Part shown: positions 1 through 17,905 of the stretch, one piece after another
How the letters are laid out: every line of letters begins with the position of its first letter
Numbering within the stretch: position 1 is the first letter of the stretch
Origin: Chiloscyllium plagiosum
Lineage: Eukaryota
Direction of reading: 5' to 3'
Length of the DNA stretch: 20,000 nt
Assembly (NCBI RefSeq): GCF_004010195.1
Contig: NC_057752.1
Location: 7,131,047-7,151,046 of the forward strand
Program-made: the position numbers and the translations under genes
The notes under the pieces: model-generated
Told to the model about the DNA's origin: nothing
The model's input: only the letters and a program-made list of their open reading frames with translations
Databases searched by the model: none

Positions 1-470
1 CTCAGGTTAGATGTTAACAATGGTGATAGCTAGACAATATGTTGAAGGTGTTAGCCCCCTGTGTTCTCTGTCTATGCCATGATGTTTAGATTGATTCTAA
101 TCTAAAAAGTGAGATAACGGAGTTTTACATTAATTCATGCAGTTTTTGAGCAAAGTACAATGTAACCCTGCAAGTACAAATTCACCCCACAAAATATATT
201 TGCGCATGTGGGTCTTTGTCTGTGTGTCTGTCTGGGTTGGGGGGGGTCGTGAGTGTGAGAAAGTGTATGTGTGTGTGTGTAGTAAGTGTTGAGTGTCTTA
301 AATCTGTGACGGGGTGCATGTGTGAGTGTGTGTGTCTGTAAGGGTGTGTGTGGGTGTCTGTGTGCGCATCTGTGTGTCCTTGTGTGTGTGTATAGGAGTG
401 TCTGTGTGTATGTGAGAGTGTGTGTGTGTAGGGGTGTCTGTGTATGGGTGTATAGTGCAATGGTGGTCAC
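1..470 (-). mobile_element. Penelope-like element 3' region (inverted segment) with (CA)n-rich tract
   Basis: 56-470 is colinear with 6936-7337, and 1-72 is the reverse complement of 7363-7434. It abuts hammerhead-bearing PLE terminal repeats at 476-873 and is truncated by the window start. Confidence 0.75.
205..452. repeat. Degenerate (TG)n/(CA)n low-complexity tract
   Basis: Interrupted TG dinucleotide run; source of the His/Thr and Val/Cys pseudo-ORFs. Confidence 0.9.
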
Positions 471-475
471 ATCAG

Positions 476-873
476 TTCAGTTTTATCACACTCTAAATTT
501 TTGCTATAAATTCTGTGTGTTAGGATTGAGCCCTCCACTATCACCTGATGAAGGAGCAAAGCTCCAAAAGCTACTGTGCTTCCAATTAAACCTGTTGGAC
601 TATAACTTGGTGTTGTGTGATTTTTAACTTTGTACACTCCAGTCCACGACCGGCATCTCCAAATCATTCTAAAAGATGAGAGACTTAACAAATAATCCAG
701 GTCTTTTTCAATATATCATTTCAGTTGCATCACACAGTAAACTTTCACTATAAATTCTGTGTCTTATGATATTATACTCCACAACCACCTGAAGAAGTAG
801 CGCTCCGAAAGCTAATGCTTCCAAATAAACCTGTTGAACTGTAACCTGGCGTTGTGTAATTTTTAACTTTGTA
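476..873 (+). mobile_element. Two diverged direct copies of a PLE terminal repeat (pLTR-like), each with a decayed hammerhead motif
   Basis: ~476-634 and ~720-873 align (ttcagtt..ctataaattctgtgt..cacctga(t/a)gaag..taaacctgttg..tttttaactttgta). CTGATGA is at 545 and CTGAAGA at 789. Confidence 0.75.
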
Positions 874-1044
874 GTAAACAAGGGAATGAGATTAATTGGA
901 CATCGTTTTCAGAGACTTAGGACAGGGAGGATGGTCAAAATGCTCTCCTATATCTGAATCCTTCTATCAACTGATTACATATTTCGTACCTCTGAATAAC
1001 AACAGCAGATACTGCACATAGCAACATGTTTACAATTTAAGGAG

Positions 1045-1300
1045 ACTCCGGGACCCGCCTAAACGGACAAATTCAGCTGACCCGGAAATGGCGTATTTAA
1101 TAATTTTGGATACACTTTTAATCTATTTGAAAATTATTATAAATGTATAATATGCCTAGCCCTTCTGTAATATATTTAGATCGAAATAAATTGTCAAAAG
1201 AAAAGAATGCTGCAAAACTAATTGCTGTAACCCGGAAGTCTTTGTGTATCGCCTCGGTTAAGTTTGGGGCCTGGAACAAGCGATAAGAAGCGGGAGCTTA
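1045..1300 (+). promoter_or_regulatory. Likely MCRS1 core promoter/TSS region with ETS (GABPA/ELK-type) and YY1-like motifs
   Basis: Local CpG clusters in otherwise CpG-poor DNA. CCGGAA at 1082-1087 overlaps AAATGGCG at 1086-1093; CCGGAAGT at 1232-1239; TATAAAT at 1138-1144; splice donor at 1317. Confidence 0.65.
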
Positions 1301-1306
1301 GTGTAA

Positions 1307-1316
1307 ATGAATAAAG
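1307..1316 (+). CDS. mcrs1: MCRS1 candidate exon 1 coding end (M-N-K + 1 nt), or uORF start
   Basis: ATG AAT AAA G|gtatga is a phase-1 donor resembling the human MCRS1 start MDK|D. It splices in frame to 8652. Confidence 0.55.
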
Positions 1317-1599
1317 GTATGAGGTTCTCGGGAAAATAGATATATGTGTTTTTTTTTGTAAAGGGGCTAATGTCTAGTGTTCATTTTTTTTCTATGCCAA
1401 AGTGAGTGGTTATGATGGAAATAAATAACACGCTTCAGGCTGCGGATCTGCTTGAACCTCTAGTTGTCTTTGAGCAACTTTCAGGGTCAGTGTCTGTATT
1501 AAACAGACAACGATGAACGTTGTGTGTTTTACTTTCCAATTTCAGCTCTTTTTTCCATTCCGCAAAATTGCTGCACCATACTCAAATTTTAAGGCTTAG

Positions 1600-2555
1600 C
1601 CATTACTGATTTTAGATGTGGGAATCAAATATAATATTACTAAATTTGCAAATGACTAAACTAGGTGCACGTACGACTTGTGAATGCAAAGATGTTTCAA
1701 GGGGATCAAGAGAGGTAGAGCGGGCGGATTTGGGGATTGTAATATAGAGTAATGAGGTTACCCATTTTGGTAGGAGCAATAGAAACACCGATCCTTTCTT
1801 AAATGTTGAACTTCAAAAGGACTTGGGTGCTTTCTTTCATGTGTCACTGAAAGATACTATGAAGGTACATCAAGTGATTTAAGAAGGTGGATGGTATATA
1901 TTTTTAAGCAACTCTTTCAGATATATTATGATGCAGGTGGCGCAGGTGGCGTTTGAACCCAGGTCTTTTGGCCTAGACGTGGGGGATACTACACCTATAT
2001 CAAATGAGCACCCTGGAAGGCAAATGGCATATTGGCTTTTATTGTAAGAGGGTTTAGTATAGAAATAAAGATGTCTTACAGTAATTATATAGAGTCTTTA
2101 TGAAATCACGCATGAAGTTTTGTGTGCAGTTTTAATCTTGCCTAAGGAAAGATATACTTGCCATGGAGGGAGTACAGTGAAGTATTGCTAGACTGATTCT
2201 TGAGATGTAGGAGTTGTCCTATGATGATGAACTAAATGGGCTGAGCCTATATTCTGTGGTCTTCAGAAGAGTGGGAGATGATCACATTGAAATGTCAATA
2301 TTTTTTCAGGGTTTGACACCATCGATACAAGAAAGAAAATTTTCTCTGAATGAGGAATTGAGATGAAGAGGAATTTCTTCACTCAGAATTGTGAATTCTC
2401 AAGCCCAGAGAGCTGTGGGGGCTCAGTTATTGAGTATGCTAAAGACTTGGATTGATAGATTTCGACATATTTACAAACGTCAAGGGACATTGAAGTAGGA
2501 TATCAGTTGTCATCTCATTGAAGAGCTGAATAGCCTACTCTACTTCCTATGTCCT
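1600..2555 (+). mobile_element. Decayed CR1-type LINE 3' fragment (RT C-terminal part to 3' UTR), interrupted by a SINE
   Basis: ~1613-1667 reads like LDVGIKYNITKFAND-KLG (CR1 ISKFADDTKLG motif). Later gaggaatttcttcactcaga (RNFFTQ) and a 3' end gctgaatagcctactc..cctatg. Confidence 0.8.
1900..2014 (-). mobile_element. Short tRNA-derived SINE inserted in the CR1
   Basis: Minus strand has a B-box-like cctgggttcaaacgccacc. Flanked by a diverged possible TSD gaaggtggatggtatat (1883-1899) / gaaggcaaatggcatat (2016-2032). Confidence 0.55.
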
Positions 2556-4251
2556 CTGCTCTTTGTTCTTGAACTGTGGTCCTTTTTTATGTAAGCATCA
2601 ATTATGTTTCCTAATGTTTTACCTTTAACCAGATTCTTAAATTAACAGATCAGAGTCTTCCTACACTTTCTGTACACCACAATCCAGCCCTTATAAAAGT
2701 CACAAATCTGTCATGATAACTGTCATGGAGGAATTATCTTTTGTTGTTTTTCTCCAAATCTTTGGTTATTGAAACAGTTGACTAAACCATCTTCCTCCAA
2801 CATCTTTTTGTTGTCCAGCTTGGTAGTCTGTCAGGTTTTGTCCCTAACCATTTGATTGAAGCCAAAGCATCTGACATTCCCTTCTCGTCTTGATGCTGTT
2901 CCCTCCCGATTCCAGAAATGATTTATCTTTGGTCTTTATCTTAGTGGGGTCCATATGGAGACTGACATGCTTCCAGGTGTACCTCTCCTTTACCCCTTTT
3001 GACCCCTCATGTTGTCATGTTGCTTGTTTGAATTGGGTGAGCTGCAGTTTCTTCAGCTAAACATCAAAACTGAATGATAATCTTAAACCGAGGTACTAAA
3101 GTCTTATTGTGAACCTTGAGCCTCCTCAGAGGCAAGTCAGAGAGTACTTCTGGTGCTAGGGGAGCCAAGGCCAGCTATGGCACCTTTTGGTTTTTTTTTG
3201 ATGGGGGGGTTGTGGTGAGGGGAGAGATATAAAGAACTGAGTAATTCCTTGCTGTTAATGAGCAGAATAAACAGCAACAGAATGAAAGGTTTGTTATGTT
3301 TTAAAATCGCTTTTATTCACAGTTTAGTTACCCATACCATTGTGTGTGAAATTTGCAAATGAATGTCTCGTTCTTGCAAAATAACATTTTCACATGACCC
3401 AGCAGCACTAATTGAAGCAATACATCATCCAAGCAAAAGGGGGATCAAATCTGATCAAACACCTCCGAAGAACTGCTGTAAATTTGTGTTGGTAACTTAG
3501 TGCTACTAAGATCAACCTTTTCACATAGAATCGTATAACATTTATAAATAGACCATTTGACCCAACAGCGTTTATGTTTTATACAATGCATCGTCCTTGT
3601 TAGTTTTCAACAAATTTAGCCTTAGCCATAGCCATTTGCATTGACTCAGTGGCAGATTTAAAAAAAATGGGTAACCCTGTCAACCAAACTTGTGGGAGCA
3701 AAATAAATTTCCCCTGGATTTTATTTTCTTGGGAATTTTGAGCCTTTCCCATTTGTGAAAGAACGATTGCACTCAGCTACCTCGAGCAAATTGCTCCTTC
3801 TGTAAGAAAAGGCCAAGGGCTAGTGATTCCATGTCTGATTGAGGGGGGAGGAAAAAGGTTACTGTTGCAGAACTGACCCAGTGAAGCTGGAGGAAGCATG
3901 CTTGTGTGACAGTGAACAGGTCGAGGTTAAGACTTCAAAAGTTAATTACTTTCACTTAGGTTAGAAAGGTGCAGTACAGTTCTAGAGTCAAAGGTCAGAG
4001 TCTTGTGCACATAGGTCTTGAGTGCGAGACTTCCAAAAAAAAGCTGCACGTTGTTTATAGTTTATACTGCAATATAATTTTGCTCCCTTGCAAAACCTAA
4101 ACAATTCTGGAGAATTATGCCTTTTAACGAACCAGTGTAATTAACACCATCAATAAAATCTCTTCCTGTTAACTTCTGTGATCTGCAGTTTTATAACTTG
4201 AATGATTTAATCTGTTCCTGGCCAGTTCTAAATTATTTTTAATAAATTTGT

Positions 4252-4467
4252 TTAGAGGGTGGTACGTGTATGGAATGAGTTGCCAGAGGATGTGGTGGAG
4301 GCTGGTACAATTGCAACATTTAAGAGGCATTTGGATGGGTATATGAATAGGAAGGGTTTGGAGGGATATGGGCCGGGTGCTGGCAGGTCGGACTAGATTG
4401 GGTTGGGATATATGGACGGGTTGGACTGAAGGGTCTTTTTCCATGCTGTACATCTCTATGACTCTAT
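4252..4467 (+). mobile_element. CR1-type LINE 3' end
   Basis: Translates RVVRVWNELPEDVVEAGTIATFKRHLDGYMNRKGLEGYGP (CR1 ORF2 C-terminus); ends in a ctctatgactctat tail. Confidence 0.9.
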
Positions 4468-4637
4468 ATATACTTTTTCAATATTGTTGAAAATAGGGCC
4501 TTTGGCCATGCTGTCCCATTTAAAAGTGCTCTGTAGGATGGTAAAAATACATGTATTCAGCTCCTTCTCACTAAATTTTGCACAGTGCAGAACAACAGTT
4601 AACAATATATCTTCAGCTGTTTGTGACTGGTACCTCT

Positions 4638-4852
4638 AGTAAACGTAAAATCACCGCAGTCCCGGAGGATCATCAAGCTGTTCTCTTCTTAGAGAAAGAC
4701 AACTAGTGACGGTTTAACCTGAGGGTCACCATGCCTTATGTGAGGGGAGAGGTTGAGAAGGAGAGTCCTTCGTGGTGACATTAGCTGGTGTGAGACTTGA
4801 ATCCGTATTATTGGCATCACTCTGCATTGCCAATCAGCTGCCCAACCATCTG
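4638..4852 (-). mobile_element. tRNA-derived SINE (family not determined)
   Basis: Minus strand has a tRNA-like head with degenerate B box (ggattcaagtctc), body ctcccctc..ggtgaccctcaggttaaacc and tail gggactgcggtgattttac. Confidence 0.6.
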
Positions 4853-5026
4853 TAGTATAGCTGAAACATAAAATACAAGTCAGAAGTATAAATTATTGTG
4901 TAAAATTGAGGTTATTTTAGTCAGGTATTTGTAGAGCTCAGAAGTTGAGCCTGACTGAACTCAAAATCGAAGGGAAGCAAGCTTAACTGCTGGAGAATTG
5001 ATACCAGTTTTAAATTTGTTTTCCAG

Positions 5027-5170
5027 ATCTACAAACTTTTGATCAATGAGATACCATTGCATGGAAAGCCTCGTACAGTGACTTTGCTAGTATCACGTTG
5101 CCACGGATGATGAGCAATTCTACCTTGATTGGTCAGAATAGCTCTCTGGAAGGAAGAAATTTAGATAAAG
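5027..5170 (+). CDS. mcrs1: MCRS1 candidate exon 2 (144 nt); coding from ATG 5107: MMSNSTLIGQNSSLEGRNLDK
   Basis: Acceptor tttgttttccag|, donor AAG|gtattg. Ends GAT AAA G (DK + phase 1) like human MDK|D and is in frame with exon 8652. In-frame TGA at 5047-5049 lies upstream of the ATGs. Confidence 0.6.
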
Positions 5171-5677
5171 GTATTGTATTCTCTGGAGCTTGGTGCTTAT
5201 TTTAAAAAAAAGTTTGCTCAAGTTGCTTCTGGTTCTTTTGTCAATCATCTGAAATTTATGTCCTCTGGTTACCAATGCTTCTATTACGTATTTATTCAAA
5301 CAAAGCTGTTTGTGATTTTGAACACCTTGATCAAGTCTGCTGTAAGGAGAGCGACCCCACCTTTTGCAGTCTTTCCAAACAGTTAAGGTCCCTCTGTTCT
5401 GTTATAATTTCAGTAAATCTCTTCTGTGCCCTTTCTAAAGCTTAGAGATGTGCATCTCTTTCCCCATCTTCAGAACCGCAGTGTTTGCATGTGTAGGTGT
5501 AATAATAGTGGATTCGTGAAAGAGGAATTTAACAAATGAGGTAATCAAGTGACAATCTGAACTGTGAGTTTTCACAGTTGTGTGCTGTTGAAGAATAACA
5601 AATAAGTTTCTGTGTGCATTGTGGAAGATTGTGATTTCTCCCCCTCTCCTGTATTTTAGTTGCATGAATCTCAAAAG

Positions 5678-6010
5678 CTTTTTTATTCATTAATGGGATG
5701 TGGGCATCGAAGGCTAGGCTTGCATTTATTGCCCATCCCGAGTTGCCCTGGATAAGGCACTTGGGCTGCCTCCTTGAACCGCTGCAGTCTCACAGTGCTA
5801 TTAGGAAGGAAGTTCGGGACAGTGACAGTGAAGGAATGACATTATAGTTCCAAGGCAGGATGGTGAGAGGCTTGGAAGGGAACTTGCAGGTGGTGGTGTT
5901 TTCACGTATCTGCTACCTTCTCCTTTTAGATGGTAGAGGTCGTGGGTTTTAAAGATGCTGTCAAAGGAGGCTTGCTGAGCTGTTACAGTGCATCTTGTAG
6001 ACAGCACACA
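5678..6010 (-). mobile_element. LINE 3' end (CR1/L2-group family), minus strand
   Basis: Reverse complement matches 7740-8050 (tctacaagatgcactg; actgcagcggttcaaggaggcagc) and ends aatgaataaaaaa. Confidence 0.75.
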
Positions 6011-6084
6011 TTTTAGACTAAGCCTGAATTTTATCTGGGTCTTGTGACATTTGGACACGAACTGCTTTGATATCTGAAGAGTTA

Positions 6085-6452
6085 CAAATTCCCTCCATTA
6101 TAAGGTCAGAAACAGGGATGTTTGCAAAATGTTCAGCACCATTTGCAGAATACTTGATACTGAAGCAGCTTGTGTCCATGCACAGCCAGACCTGGAAGAG
6201 ATCCAGGGTTAGCTTATAAGTGGCAAGTAATATTTGCACCATGGAAGTGCTGGGCAATGACCATATCCAAAAAGAAAATATCTAACCAGTGCCATTCCTG
6301 GATCTTCCACTTTAACATCCTGGGAATTACCATCGCTCAGAGACTGAACTGGCCCAAGCATATCAATACTATGGCTGCAAATGCAGGTTGGAGGCTCAGA
6401 ATTGAGAGAGGAATAACTGATCTTCTGACTCCCCAAGGTCTGTTGATCGTCT
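6085..6452 (+). mobile_element. LINE RT fragment, 5' part of an element that resumes at ~7655
   Basis: Frameshifted PSIIRSETGMFA..MFSTI (FADD region), then AYKWQVIFAPWKC..ILGITIAQRLNWPKHIN typical of LINE RT C-terminal regions. Confidence 0.75.
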
Positions 6453-6552
6453 ACACTCTAGAATTTAGAAGCTTAAGGGGTGATCTGATTGAAGTCTTCA
6501 AGATATTAACAGGAAAAGACAGGGTAGATTAAGATAAACTATTTCCTCTGGT
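6451..6552 (+). mobile_element. CR1 ORF2 fragment
   Basis: YTLEFRSLRGDLIEVFKILTGKDRVD*DKLFPL, homologous to the 19706-19993 minus-strand ORF (YTLEFRRLRGDLIETYKI). Confidence 0.85.
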
Positions 6553-6587
6553 TGAAAATGTGTTGCTGGAAAAGCGCAGCAGGTCAG

Positions 6588-6625
6588 GAATCCTGAAGAC
6601 GGGCTTTTGCCCGAAACGTCGATTC
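6588..6625 (+). ncRNA. Minimal type-I hammerhead ribozyme motif, copy 1
   Basis: GAAUC-CUGAAGA-c-GGGC-uuuu-GCCC-GAAA-C-GUC-GAUUC: conserved core, stem II, stem I 6588-6592/6621-6625, predicted cleavage after C6620. Confidence 0.75.
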
Positions 6626-6808
6626 TCCTGTTCCTTGGATGCTGCCTGACCTGCTGTGCTTTTCCAGCAACACATTTTCAGCTCTGATCTCCAGCATCTG
6701 CAGTCCTCACTTTCTCCTCAAAGATTAGATCTGTTGCAGTGTTCCTTAACGCAAGTTCAAAGAACAACACTTCATTTTCCATCTTCTCCTGCTGAACACT
6801 CTCTGCTC

Positions 6809-6844
6809 ATTCCTGAAGAAGGGCCTGTGCCCGAAACGTCGAAT
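6809..6844 (+). ncRNA. Minimal type-I hammerhead ribozyme motif, copy 2
   Basis: AUUC-CUGAAGA-a-GGGC-cugu-GCCC-GAAA-C-GUC-GAAU: stem I 6809-6812/6841-6844, predicted cleavage after C6840. Confidence 0.75.
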
Positions 6845-6935
6845 CTCCTGTTCCCTGGATGCTGCCTGACCTGCTGTGCTGTTCCAGCAATAAAGTTTCA
6901 ACTTTGATCTCCAGCATCTGCAGACCTCACTTTCT

Positions 6936-7650
6936 CCCTGTGTTCTCTGTCTATGACCTGGTGTTGAGATTGATTCTAATCTAAAAAGTGAGATAACAGA
7001 GTTTTACATAAATTCATGCAGCTTTTGAGCTCAGAGTTCTACATGAATGTATGCAGTTTTTGAGCGAAGTGCAATGTAACCCTGAAAGTACAAATTCACC
7101 CCACAAAATATGTGTGTGCATGTGGGTCTTTGTGTGTGTGTGTGTCTGTCTGGGGTGGGGGTTGAGAGTGTGAGAAAGTGTGTGTGTATGTGTGTAGTGA
7201 GTGCAGAGTGTCTTAAGTCTGTGAGGGGGTGCATGTGGGAGTGTGTGTGTGTCTATAAGGGTGTGTGTGCACGTCTGTGTGTACCTGTGTCCGTGTGTGT
7301 GTGTGTAGGAATATCTGTGTGTGCAATGGTGATCACCATTGCAATGTGACATGAACCCATGTGACAGAGAACACAGGGGGCTAACACCTTCAACATATTG
7401 TCTAGCTATCACCATTGTTAACAGCTAACTCGAGAATGCAACTTTTTAAAAAAAAGAGTTTTGTGATTTACACATGAAAGAAGTGAAACTATCACTGTAC
7501 TCTAACAGATGAAAGGCTTAACAGACAATCAATTTTTCAATGTATAATTTCAGTTACATCACACTGCAGATTTTTGCTATAAATACGATTGAGCCCTCCA
7601 CAATCACCTGATGAAGGACTATAACCTGGTGTTGTATGATTTTTAACTTA
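6936..7650. mobile_element. 5'-truncated Penelope-like element with internal inversion (6936-7358 minus; 7363-7650 plus)
   Basis: Same family as 1-873. 7344-7358 minus encodes GFMSH, which resembles the C-terminal end of PLE GIY-YIG ORFs (recalled, not searched). The plus part ends in the pLTR with CTGATGA at 7608. Confidence 0.75.
7090..7323. repeat. Degenerate (TG)n tract within the PLE
   Basis: Interrupted TG run homologous to 205-452. Confidence 0.85.
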
Positions 7651-7654
7651 GTTC

Positions 7655-8058
7655 ACAGCAGCCTGCTTGTTTCACATAATCATCCACCAAAATCCACGTT
7701 CACTCCCTCAACTAAATGCACAGAGGCAGCCATTTTTATCATCTACAAGGTGCACTGCGGCAACTTATAAGGCTCTTTCAAAAGTATCTTCCAAACCATC
7801 ATCTCTACTTTCTAGAAGGACAAATCATATACATGAAAACACCACCGAGTTCCCTTCTAAGCCATGTATCTGACTTCGGACTGTATTGCTTTTCCCTCAC
7901 CGTTATTGGGTAAAATTCTGGAACTCTATAACAGCACTGTAGGTGTTTCTACGTCTCCTAGACTGCAGCATTTCAAGAAGGTGGCTCACCATTATCTTCT
8001 TGAAGGTAATTGGAAATGGACGCTTAAATACCCCATGTCCCGTGAATAAAGTTTTTAA
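7655..8058 (+). mobile_element. LINE 3' end (continuation of 6085-6452)
   Basis: Homologous to the reverse complement of 5678-6010; terminates in gtgaataaa. Confidence 0.7.
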
Positions 8059-8651
8059 AAAATCCATTCTGACCTCCTTTCTCAAACAATGTAACCCATC
8101 AGTCACTCCCAGATTCAGTCTTTGCTGTGTGCTGCAATAGCTTTTTGGCTTGGGTCTTAGTAGAGGTGCTGGAAGAGGTACTTCTTGGCTAGAGGAAGGA
8201 AACACTGTCAGGATTTGTATTTGTGATCCCTGCTGCTGGAAGATGGTAAAAATGTGATTGAGGTTGATTGTAATTTTTTGGGTCCCATGCATCCTGTCAT
8301 CAAGTTGTATGTCGCCCCTTGCTGTCCCAAATAAAGGCCACTTGGGGGCGAAGCGACAGTGGGTATGTAATATCTATTGATTTATACCCGAGCACTCAGG
8401 AGATGATGCAAGAAAGATGTGAGAAAATGCATTTCTTGTGAAGGAAAGGGTAAAATTACTTCAGTTAATAGGCTTGCTAGTTATCAATCAGTGTAGACAG
8501 TGTGTACTTTAGGGCGATATTACAAGTCAGGTAGAGTCACAGCATTAAAGTGAGTAAGTCAATCTTGCTGCTTATATGTTAGATCACATGGATGGTAAAA
8601 CTCATCTGTTTTTACATGAAATAATAAGCAATGCTCTTTTTCTTTATGAAG

Positions 8652-8802
8652 CTGATCAGCAGTGTACATTGGGTACTATTGGGACAAGGCTTATGTCGAC
8701 AGGGTCTGTGGGGAGATCTGATGGGGCCCAGTCCCCCTCGGCACAGAAACGCACCGCAACTCAAGCTTTCAGCCTACTTCCCAAACGCAGAAGCTCATCC
8801 AG
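8652..8802 (+). CDS. mcrs1: MCRS1 coding exon (phase 1-2): (A)DQQCTLGTIGTRLMSTGSVGRSDGAQSPSAQKRTATQAFSLLPKRRSSS(R)
   Basis: Matches the human MCRS1 segment ..QKRASSQALGTIPKRRSSSR. Acceptor ctctttttctttatgaag|, donor AG|gtaatg. Confidence 0.88.
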
Positions 8803-10959
8803 GTAATGCAGGGGTGGAAATGCTGTCTCTTCAGCTCGCCTACAGCCTTTTATTTACATGTCATTTATATGACAGTGCCACTTCTACTTGAAATGGTTCT
8901 CTGCAATATTCATCACCTGTCCCACTCGATATTCTGAATTTTATTTATGGTGTGGGGTGGAGCTCTGAGTGCTGGCACTGGCAAAAGCAAAGCAAGATTA
9001 TAAATGCTCATTCGTTTCCAAATGGCAGTCAGATGTTTGACAGTGGCTCATGGTGGTAGTGGTGGCCATTTATCTTTGTTGTTGGTTGCACCTTACCTCC
9101 CAAAGACAGGGAGTTGAAGACAGCTTGGAAGAAGATGTTCTGCATCTAGTGAGGTGTATAGGTGAGCTAGTATACACCACAGTATTGCCGACAAAAACAG
9201 AGCATTTGTTATTTAAGACCTTTTTCACAGTATAACTGGACTATCAAATAAGGATCTGTGATATTCAAGTGATTCTGCATGGATAGACCACTTTGATACA
9301 GGGCGGACTGAACAGAGCCTGCATGCTGTAAACAGTAACTATACTGGGGGATTTAACTTGAGAATTTGTCAAGTGTTTCAAACTCTCAGAAGCTCTGACC
9401 ACCCCTCCATTTTGAAATCATGTTGCTTGGTGTTCCTTCTTTCCATCACCTGTATTTTCATACACATTTGGCTGAGTAAACTGAGTTGAGGAAATGATTT
9501 CAGAATTACTTTTTGACTGATTTTCTACTGTTTGGATCTCCCCTTGTTGAGTGACGTCCTTCCATGTTCCTCTGATTGTTGTTCACAAGCTTTCCAAAAC
9601 TGCTTGTTAGGTGGGAAAGGAAGGAGTCATCTCTCTTTCTTTCTCTCCAGTTGTTTCTTTCGCTGGTGCTGGTCAATTCTCTGACAGTGGCAACTGCCAA
9701 CACACAGTTCAAGCCTTCTGGTGGACTGTGCCACACTACTTTATTTAACTCCAATTTAAATGATGCTTTCATTGACCTGTCATAAAGTTTGTGATTCTTT
9801 AAAGTTCATCTTAAGTAAAGAGATAAATTGTAATGGTGATCGTATTAATGGGCCATGTGCAAATTGTTGAGGGAATGCAGATGTCATGCATTTAAGACCT
9901 GGATTTTAGGATTCATATTGTTTAACAGGATGAGGAGTGCCACTGATGAGTAGCCATATTAGATGCTTTGCGGCTAGTTTTTGTACTAGTACATGTGTGT
10001 GTGTTTTCAAATTACTCCTAATTTATTTTGCTAATCTCCTGTCTGCTGAACATGGTGTTAGCACCCCTTTGGGACTTTGCTTAAGCAAATGTTGTTTGTG
10101 GATGTGACTGTTGGATTCCTTGACCCATAAAGGGCATCACAACAAAGCCTGATCCTGTTTGAACTTGCTGACCATGTATCCAGCAAAAGTCAAATGACAG
10201 AAATGTGAAGTGAGTGCATTTTCCAAGTGCTAATTATTGCCTTGGGTATAAAGCTGTGTGGGTTAGTGGCTATTTGTGTGTAGTGGAGGTTTATCTTTCG
10301 AGGCCCAAGAAGCAATGGTGGTGGTGTAGCACGGTAAAGTTTCAACATTGTGAGGAGTTTATTTGACAAAAAGTCATCTTCCCTGCAAAGACAGAGATGT
10401 CTGTGCCACGCATTGAAGCATATTATTGTTTTGGCATTCCTGTGTTTGGACATAGAATGGTGAGGAAGGCTGGTGAATGAACAACATGAATGTTCCGTTC
10501 CCAGTTCCACTGTTCTTGAGAGTTTGTTTAGTACAGTTTGTAATGACTGCAATGTGAGCAGTTTTGTGCTGTAGATTGACCCTCTTGGGGTTGGGATGAG
10601 ACTACCTCAAATGCAAACATGTTGCACTCCAGCATTGGCACCATGTGCTTTGTGTCATCCTCCTTACCCTCAAATATTTTGATGTTTCCATCTTAACAAA
10701 GAGAACCTTCACTCCATCAATTTGGATTGGATTTAAACTCAAATCTGAGTTCAAGTGATTGGTCAAGATCACAGTGTTATTGAGATCTCCAGGCCTAAAT
10801 TTTAAGTTGGGAGCAATTTCTTTCTTTAGCAATAGTTCAGATTTTAATCTCTGCATCTGGAACAGTCAGGGTACGCTTCCTATTCTTACTTAACCATGTT
10901 GTTCTGTCATTTTCTTTTGCACCACTGACTGACCATTCTTACATTGTTCCATTTTCCAG

Positions 10960-11127: not shown

Positions 11128-11272
11128 AACAAAATGCTGGAAATACACAGTAGATCCATCAGCATTTGAGAAAACAAAGGGTAGATTAATGGTTGGCCAG
11201 ATCCTTTTTATTGACCTGTCCCTTTTCTTTGTCAGAAGCTGATGAACTGCTATGTGCTTCCATTTCCAGCTT
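11128..11272. repeat. Decayed hairpin-like relative of the 6553-6937 repeat
   Basis: aaatgctggaaatacacagtagatccatcagc ... gctgatgaactgctatgtgcttccatttccagc form imperfect inverted arms; no intact ribozyme core. Confidence 0.5.
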
Positions 11273-11789
11273 AATTGGTTCTTAGTTGGGTTTTCACCAT
11301 CAGCAGTGTTTTCCTTTTTTCTATCTGTGCTCTTTAGGCAGTTAGTTAATGGGTTAATGTTTTCTAAATTTACTGAGTGGTTCATTTCCCACATACACCT
11401 CACTGCTTGGTTAAGCAGAGTCCCTATGACATAAGAGGAGGCTGTTCAGCCCAGGACCTCTTGTTCAAGCAACCTGGTCAGTCCCAATTCCACACCTCTG
11501 CAACGTTGGAAGCTTTGCTTACTGTGAGTTATTTTCATTGGGACCTGTTCAGCTCCAAATAGTGTGATGCATTGAGTAAATGCTGAATAGTGCACTGCTG
11601 CATGTGCTGTCTAGCAGTGGAATTCGGGTGTGATGCAAGGCAAAGATGCACTTGGACTGGGAACAGTCATAAACTGCCTGACCTTATTCCCAAAGTTTGG
11701 CATTGTCTTGAATCCTTCAGTGGTGATACTGCCTTGTGTCATTTTCCAATCTATTTTTTGAAGCCTCTGATTTGTAGCTCCATGCTGCA

Positions 11790-11941
11790 ATTCCCGGTAC
11801 TTGCTGATTGTATCAAGGATCACGCTCTAACTGATGAATCAAAGGAGGCTGGCACTGAAAATTTGTTCCTTGTAGATGGTGGACAGGCATTGGCGAGTCG
11901 GGAGGTGAGTTACATGCCTCATTTCCCAGCCTCTGATCTGC
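11790..11941 (-). mobile_element. LINE fragment, same family as 6085-6452
   Basis: Reverse complement cagaggctgggaaat..gtaactcacctcccgactcgccaatgcctgtccaccatctacaagg parallels 6390-6452. Confidence 0.6.
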
Positions 11942-11959: not shown

Positions 11960-12025
11960 ATTTTCACTCTTTTGGATGTTGGCTGACCTGCTCAATATTT
12001 CCAGCATTTTTCTATGTTTTATTGC
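11960..12025 (+). repeat. Decayed fragment of the PLE-derived short repeat
   Basis: ggatgttggctgacctgctcaatatttccagca resembles ggatgctgcctgacctgctgtgcttttccagca (6637-6669). Confidence 0.65.
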
Positions 12026-12589: not shown

Positions 12590-12690
12590 GCAAAATGCTG
12601 TGGATCTTGAGAATGGAAAGGAAAAATACAATATCCTGGAAATACTCCAGTAGTACTGGCAGCATCTGAAGGGGAAAAGAAAGTTAATGA
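12590..12690 (-). repeat. Decayed fragment of the PLE-derived short repeat, minus orientation
   Basis: cctggaaatactccagtagtactggcagcatctg resembles gctggaaa..cagcaggtcaggcagcatc. Confidence 0.5.
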
Positions 12691-17402: not shown

Positions 17403-17905
17403 TAGGAACTTAGGAGTAGCCTATTAAGTCCCTCGAGCCTGTTCCATGTTCAATGAGATCATGGCTGATCTATGGCCTAACTTCATATGGTCTTTCACCC
17501 ATATCCCTTAATACCTTTGCTTAATAAAACATTATCTATTTGAGATTTAAAAATAACAACTGATCCAGGATCCACTGCCATTTGTGGAAGAGAGTTCTGA
17601 ACCTTTACCATCCTTTGTGTTTAGCAATGCTTCCTAACATCTCTCCTAAACGGTCTGGCCCTAATTTTCAGACTATGCCCCCCCCATCGTTCTAGAGTCC
17701 CCAGTTAGTGGAAATGGTTTATCTTTATTCACCCTGCCATTTCCTGTTAATATCTTGAAGACTTTGATTAGATCACGCCTTAACCTTCTAAACTCTAGTA
17801 AAAACAGGCCTTATTTGTATAACCTCTCCTCATAACTCCTGAAGTCTAGGTATCAACTTGTAAACTACATTGTACTCAAAGCCAATATATTCTTCTGAAG
17901 GTGTG
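17403..17905 (-). mobile_element. CR1-type LINE 3' fragment
   Basis: aggagtagcc..ctcgagcctgttcc..tcatggctgatc 3' UTR; cctaaacggtct, gatcac..taaccttctaaactc parallel 19835-19981. Confidence 0.85.

Follow-up and report, generated by a model that had tools for sequence, protein, structure and literature searches.

The window analyzed here is a stretch of 20,000 nucleotides of DNA from Chiloscyllium plagiosum, and it contains exons of MCRS1 (Table 1). A Pfam scan of exon translations gave MCRS_N above its curated cut-off in three of the seven stretches scanned, with a weaker match in a fourth. The Chiloscyllium MCRS1 protein was 100% identical over exon 8652-8802, and tblastn with that protein placed plus-strand coding exons there and at 5107-5170. 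Both hammerhead motifs described below therefore lie in sense orientation within intron 5171-8651, in agreement with a first-pass annotation of this DNA that had named MCRS1 as the host gene. Its label of "intron 2" needs a further exon upstream, near 1230-1315. Two minor features of the gene were also observed. The MCRS1 isoform X1 (P0001) contains a 47-residue insert, absent in P0003-P0005, that maps to about 11761-11904 and is possibly an exonized repeat or a prediction artifact. At 1306-1316, an ATG and two codons precede a GT donor in phase with exon 8652, a possible alternative MCRS1 start, and two CCGGAA motifs are found upstream of this candidate ATG, near 1081 and 1231.

Table 1. Coordinates of features in the MCRS1 intron and its flanking exons
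Feature	Position	Strand	Basis or remark
MCRS1 coding exon, start of annotated shark protein	5107..5170	+	tblastn of P0001, P0005; GT donor at 5171
Multi-copy repeat fragment ending where the inverted arm begins	6458..6549	+	86% inverted match to 17707-17798
Inverted partial copy of element	6551..6591	-	38-nt arm complementary to 6645-6682, ends in TCAGGAAT (6584-6591)
Copy 1, ~127-nt end-piece of very high-copy family; subfamily abundant in organisms A and B	6592..6718	+	
Minimal hammerhead 1	6593..6620	+	descriptor, fold; predicted cut after C6620; extra base C6600
Spacer, likely host DNA	6719..6771	.	single-copy-level depth for 6743-6771; no second match in window
Bin with element-derived sequence upstream of copy 2, 5' edge approximate	6772..6808	+	depth contrast X2/X14
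Copy 2, end-piece of subfamily much deeper in organism A than B	6809..6937	+	
Minimal hammerhead 2	6813..6840	+	descriptor, fold; predicted cut after C6840
Second repeat family adjoining copy 2, inverted then direct part	6936..7656	.	matches to 1-470, 470-873; depth 10^5
Following MCRS1 coding exon	8652..8802	+	protein identity, tblastn, splice signals

The two motifs have the form CUGAAGA-N-GGGC-N4-GCCC-GAAA-C-GUC, at 6593-6620 and 6813-6840 of the plus strand with a spacing of 220 nt. Re-reading of the sequence confirmed both cores where they had first been reported, each with a 4-bp stem II and an ACGU palindrome. C17 is C6620 in copy 1 and C6840 in copy 2, and cleavage is predicted after each. 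A strict minimal-hammerhead descriptor, run over both strands of the 20 kb, matched exactly twice, at these two cores; 500 dinucleotide shuffles gave a mean of 0.01 matches and a maximum of 1, with two motifs in none of the 500. In sequence, the motifs fit the minimal hammerheads of Penelope-like elements (PLEs). Both copies have the CUGANGA and GAAA boxes, 16.1 U, H17, an extra base between 9 and 10.1 (C6600 and A6820), and a G10.1-C11.1 pair (G6601-C6612 and G6821-C6832); the helix III loop is absent, and ACGU forms the palindromic 15.2-16.2 segment. Cervera and De la Pena (2014, PMC4209133), who defined the minimal hammerhead and the dimer concept and counted thousands of copies, mainly solo ones, in the genomes of fish, coelacanth, and Xenopus, describe the same missing loop, palindromic 15.1-16.1 segment, extra base at 9/10.1, and G10.1-C11.1 pair, along with a 4-bp helix I, very many dispersed solo copies, and some close pairs on opposite strands, all of which are seen here. 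The shark motifs differ from the Schistosoma families of that study in having a stem II of 4 rather than 7 to 8 bp. Sharks are not among the examples in the available parts of that paper. Our literature search, limited in scope, found no publication on this shark family. The Rfam hammerhead models, which the first-pass annotation had put forward as a check, returned no hammerhead, either among five matches up to E=10 on 6540-6950 or among three matches up to E=1 on the window. Rfam hammerhead models expect longer helices, and this miss consequently says little.

The repeated sequence is considerably shorter than the distance between the motifs. Copies 1 and 2 resemble each other over 127 nt (6591-6717 versus 6811-6937, 115/127 identical, 91%). 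At the 220-nt offset, the 93 nt upstream of copy 1 and the spacer are identical at 21/93 and 23/93 positions, respectively, which is chance level, and Tandem Repeats Finder did not call the hammerhead pair. We aligned 6250-7090 at 88% likeness against four runs, X2 (organism A, DNA by guess), X14 (relative B), X21, and X15; contigs were assigned to the better-fitting copy, and summed contig depth is not a copy number, such that contrasts alone are used. In X2, 105,256 contigs matched, giving a summed depth of 10^6 to 10^7 over both copies versus 22.6 at 6743-6771, the latter similar to the 17 to 47 found in six flank bins across 6279-6452. The same spacer bin had a depth of 87.7 in X14. This single-copy depth indicates that no mobile 220-nt unit includes the spacer. 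The tandem, retrozyme-like unit of 220 nt proposed in the first-pass annotation is not supported by these data: only 127 of the 220 nt are repeated, identity elsewhere is at chance, no tandem repeat was called, and part of the spacer is single copy. There is thus no head-to-tail repeat of at least two consecutive units that each carry a complete hammerhead, and the hammerhead-to-hammerhead unit is not a multicopy family, with 6743-6771 at flank-level depth at 88% likeness.

The family to which the hammerheads belong is, by contrast with the spacer, dispersed and very large. Loose ends behind 6717 and 6718 were present in at least 641 and at least 1157 contigs, with an agreement of 0.35 in the onward sequence, as expected of an element that terminates at this point next to a wide variety of flanking sequences. 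At other genomic sites, contigs place an element end directly on the next head, with joints of 6718 to 6809/6810 and of 6713 to 6808 (7 and 5 contigs in X2, 7 and 4 in X14, and 1 in X15). These joints show true head-to-tail dimers of about 128 to 130 nt at low depth, and they are better retrozyme candidates than the MCRS1 locus. The fragment at 6458-6549, putatively LINE-like, had a summed depth of 5x10^3 to 1.7x10^4 in X2.

Copies 1 and 2 have different depth profiles in the two organisms. The A/B depth ratio was 12.4 for copy-2-type and 0.82 for copy-1-type sequence, and in the bin at 6772-6808 it reached 152 (2.1x10^5 in X2 versus 1.4x10^3 in X14). At position 6704, the copy-2 letter made up 12% of the depth in A and 0.14% in B. 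The letters that distinguish copy 2 are common to a summed depth of about 10^6, with two variants among the rows listed for 6844-6937. Position 6600 is A in 99% of the depth and C in copy 1, so C6600 is a private change of that copy; core position 7 is U in 54% of the depth in A and 70% in B. From the contrasting profiles we infer two subfamilies and two insertions as the simplest reading. The possibility that the copies were independent insertions, raised as a caveat in the first-pass annotation, is now the likely one, given the different species profiles and the single-copy part of the spacer. If 20,000 to 500,000 copies and a genome of 3 to 4 Gb are assumed, random placement by itself would be expected to put about 10 to 9,000 pairs on the same strand at a distance of no more than 220 nt.

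Immediately upstream of copy 1 is an inverted partial copy of the element. Its arm at 6551-6588 pairs with 6645-6682 at all 38 positions (-71.5 kcal/mol), after which three bases complete the reverse complement of the element head; the stretch TCAGGAAT at 6584-6591 is that reverse complement in the form found in copy 2. The mirror image is short of about 53 nt between two TCAGG matches, a gap that probably arose at insertion or by later deletion between those matches. The arm 6551-6591 thus gives the locus a 5'-truncated copy with an adjacent inverted copy, as is found for PLE termini. The junction also bears on stem I, which in the monomer is AAUC/GAUU in copy 1, where inclusion of one G-U pair lengthens it to 6 bp, and AUUC/GAAU, with 4 bp, in copy 2. 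The 315 X21 reads with a loose end ahead of 6591 terminate in CTCAT, like copy 2, which indicates that the 5' stem I strand of the family is AUUC. The suspicion that the 5' strand of copy 1 derives from the inversion junction was therefore well founded, both in the arm and in the family strand. The stem I pair reported as A-U in copy 1 and U-A in copy 2 is correct as sequence; as compensation it fails, because the AAUC strand was made by the junction, and covariation between the copies is ruled out.

These observations match what is known of PLE insertions, which are regularly 5' truncated, arranged in partial tandems, and accompanied by an inverted copy next to them (Craig et al. 2021, PMC8557442), and which tend to occur beside earlier copies (PMC6765202). 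The locus shares with the endonuclease-bearing PLE insertions of the former study a strong 5' truncation, the adjacent inverted 5'-truncated copy, and clustering. It departs from them, as far as they are described in the available text, in that nothing but the last 130 to 165 nt remains of the element, about 53 nt are absent from the inverted partner, and the direct copies are separated by single-copy DNA rather than fused as in partial tandems. On the strength of motif and architecture, the very abundant repeat likely represents PLE termini. The locus very probably consists of two separate, inert insertions of hammerhead-bearing end-pieces of this repeat. An autonomous PLE reverse transcriptase/endonuclease would have copied only the last 130 to 165 nt of its own RNA. 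Integration of copy 1 would have brought along an inverted 5' partner, as is usual, and this partner would have lost the sequence between the TCAGG matches either during integration or through a deletion afterwards. Copy 2, from a subfamily expanded in the lineage of organism A, would have inserted some 60 nt downstream, with a third element inserting at its end. During transcription, the nascent copy 1 would be captured by the 38-bp arm, so that only a monomer lacking helix III remained, and a heterodimer would require one mismatch in each of the two stems I. Both end-pieces are predicted to escape cleavage and to be removed together with the MCRS1 intron by splicing.

In another scenario, one integration event would have produced the arm, copy 1, spacer, and copy 2 together, through template switching of the reverse transcriptase from the RNA of one subfamily to that of another and the capture of about 60 nt of unrelated DNA or RNA. 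Such a composite insertion is unlikely, and its product would likewise be inert. PLEs typically insert in complex tandem and inverted arrangements (PMC8557442), and contigs elsewhere do join an element end straight to another head (6718 to 6809/6810). Searches for target-site duplications of at least 6 nt found none around copy 1, copy 2, or both together, and for copy 2 with its neighboring element they gave two 6-nt matches only. The lack of separate duplications speaks for one event, but the whole unit is without a flanking duplication as well. The private C6600, and a copy-1 type present in both species against a copy-2 type concentrated in A, fit two ages better and favor the reading of two separate insertions.

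The first-pass annotation had suggested that the MCRS1 transcript supplies both motifs in cis and could be cleaved to free a 220-nt RNA. In this model, a double hammerhead forms through ACGU and cuts after C6620 and C6840, and ligation then closes the freed RNA into a circle. It is distinctly improbable. Both cores are intact, the ACGU palindromes of the two copies are mutually complementary, and 220 nt falls inside the 170-to-400-nt range of metazoan retrozyme RNAs (PMC7229834). However, in the double-hammerhead geometry, which we derived by reasoning, helix III forms between the copies and each stem I is built from the 5' strand of one copy and the 3' strand of the other. The strands thus swap partners, which produces an A6590·A6843 mismatch at the C6840 site and a U6623·U6810 mismatch at the C6620 site. 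The in-register helix energies of the swapped stems I are -1.1 and +1.4 kcal/mol versus -5.0 and -0.4 kcal/mol for the matched pairs, and at junction B only 2 bp plus 1 are left. The arm pairs with copy 1 at P=0.999, and does so likewise in a transcript that stops at 6720 and thus still lacks copy 2. The dimer fold, when imposed, costs 30.8 kcal/mol with the arm and 17.1 kcal/mol without it, so that the arm adds about 14; nearest-neighbor folding ignores the tertiary energy of the core and proteins, and only this difference is meaningful. The predicted dimer fraction of about 10^-12, even without the arm, means little as an absolute value under such a model. The dimer fold is nested and compatible with an arm that pairs with copy 2 instead, at -57.8 versus -71.5 kcal/mol, but the arm favors copy 1 by about 14 kcal/mol. 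In addition, the spacer is single copy, so the unit has not spread, and minimal hammerheads, which do not cleave as monomers and cleave weakly as dimers or trimers (PMC4209133), are weak even as matched dimers (PMC4209133; bioRxiv 10.64898/2026.07.22.740005). By these models, copy 1 would be locked in the 38-bp hairpin ahead of the synthesis of copy 2, and the two motifs are not expected to assemble into an active ribozyme.

Slightly less probable still is that chance insertions from two subfamilies built a cis double hammerhead that works because the arm is shifted to copy 2 with the help of the PLE protein or an RNA chaperone. Activation of such a ribozyme by a PLE protein has a precedent, in that an Anolis PLE hammerhead cleaved only when the protein of the element was added (PMC11167929). 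That hammerhead was dispensable for insertion in vitro, and it left no read ends at the cut site. If the chaperoned dimer did form, the MCRS1 pre-mRNA would be cut twice to give a chimeric 220-nt circle with about 60 nt of host intron, a retrozyme at birth, and MCRS1 output could drop in cells with an active element. A local tandem duplication, in which one insertion was doubled and the two halves then diverged and which would explain the shared strand, the short distance, and the 91% identity, is the least probable reading of all and is largely refuted by the missing homology upstream of copy 1 at the 220-nt offset and by the distinguishing letters of copy 2, which are so widespread in other contigs that they are not post-duplication mutations.

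RNA reads came from two runs, X21 (poly(A), single-cell, sampled at about 2%) and X15 (RNA by guess). In X21, 3354 reads aligned, and 96% of these continued into unlike sequence. Depth was 0 at 6743-6771 in both runs, and no pile-up of read ends was seen anywhere in either; the poly(A) library is of a kind that would miss circles and most cut ends. A 22-nt pattern of the motif had 0 loci in metagenomes and 0 in viral contigs. The 26 loci of a 20-nt pattern (17 metagenomic and 9 prokaryotic) were rejected as chance, all of them matching over 20 to 27 nt only.

The comparison with non-LTR retrozymes puts the locus in context. These are tandem repeats expressed as 170-to-400-nt linear and circular RNAs (PMC7229834); they have been linked to PLE termini and are present in one chondrichthyan genome, and in Xenopus 42 to 44% of retrozyme copies are intronic and 1 of 9 dimers was cleaved (bioRxiv 10.64898/2026.07.22.740005). 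The available parts of PMC6155905 and PMC7761336 concur on this background. The MCRS1 pair resembles retrozymes (PMC7229834; Li, Clavereau and Pollet 2026 preprint) in having two type I hammerheads in the same direction, 220 nt apart, in its relation to PLEs, and in an intronic location, which is common among them. Unlike retrozymes, it is not a head-to-tail repeat (127/220 nt), its spacer is in part single copy, its copies probably come from different subfamilies, and its motif is minimal instead of canonical. The locus has the sequence features that define PLE-type minimal hammerheads and lacks both the consecutive repeat and the multicopy unit of non-LTR retrozymes, and we regard it as ordinary debris of PLE insertion. 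As best explained, it adds a pair to the very large dispersed population of PLE-type hammerhead stubs and matters little in itself. It does offer a screening rule: before a retrozyme is called, a candidate pair should be checked for pairing in its swapped stems I, for the number of copies in which its spacer occurs, and for the subfamily to which either copy belongs. Were cleavage and circles to be shown here, the locus would be a direct test of whether PLE termini give rise to retrozymes, through juxtaposition rather than local amplification.

A second hammerhead-like family, with an AGCU palindrome, is also present in the window. Its cores at 545-575 and 789-815 are on the same strand, 244 nt apart; the first is without the G of GAAA, and the second has a broken stem II. 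A third core, at 7606, is broken and without stem II, and ends the repeat at 6936-7656. In this family (6936-7656, 1-470), an inverted part adjoins a direct part, and a short stretch is duplicated where the two meet. Pfam gave no match in its minus-strand open frame at about 7014-7424, a few residues of which may resemble the end of a PLE endonuclease frame. Older stretches at 11135-11165, 11972-12006, and about 12600-12690 share the central block of the element without a hammerhead core. Finally, the insertion cluster in the intron is bracketed by an old inverted repeat pair, 5869-6001 and 7742-7863 (71% identity; also 5762-5790 and 7960-7988), which together with the 38-bp hairpin could be a substrate for A-to-I editing.
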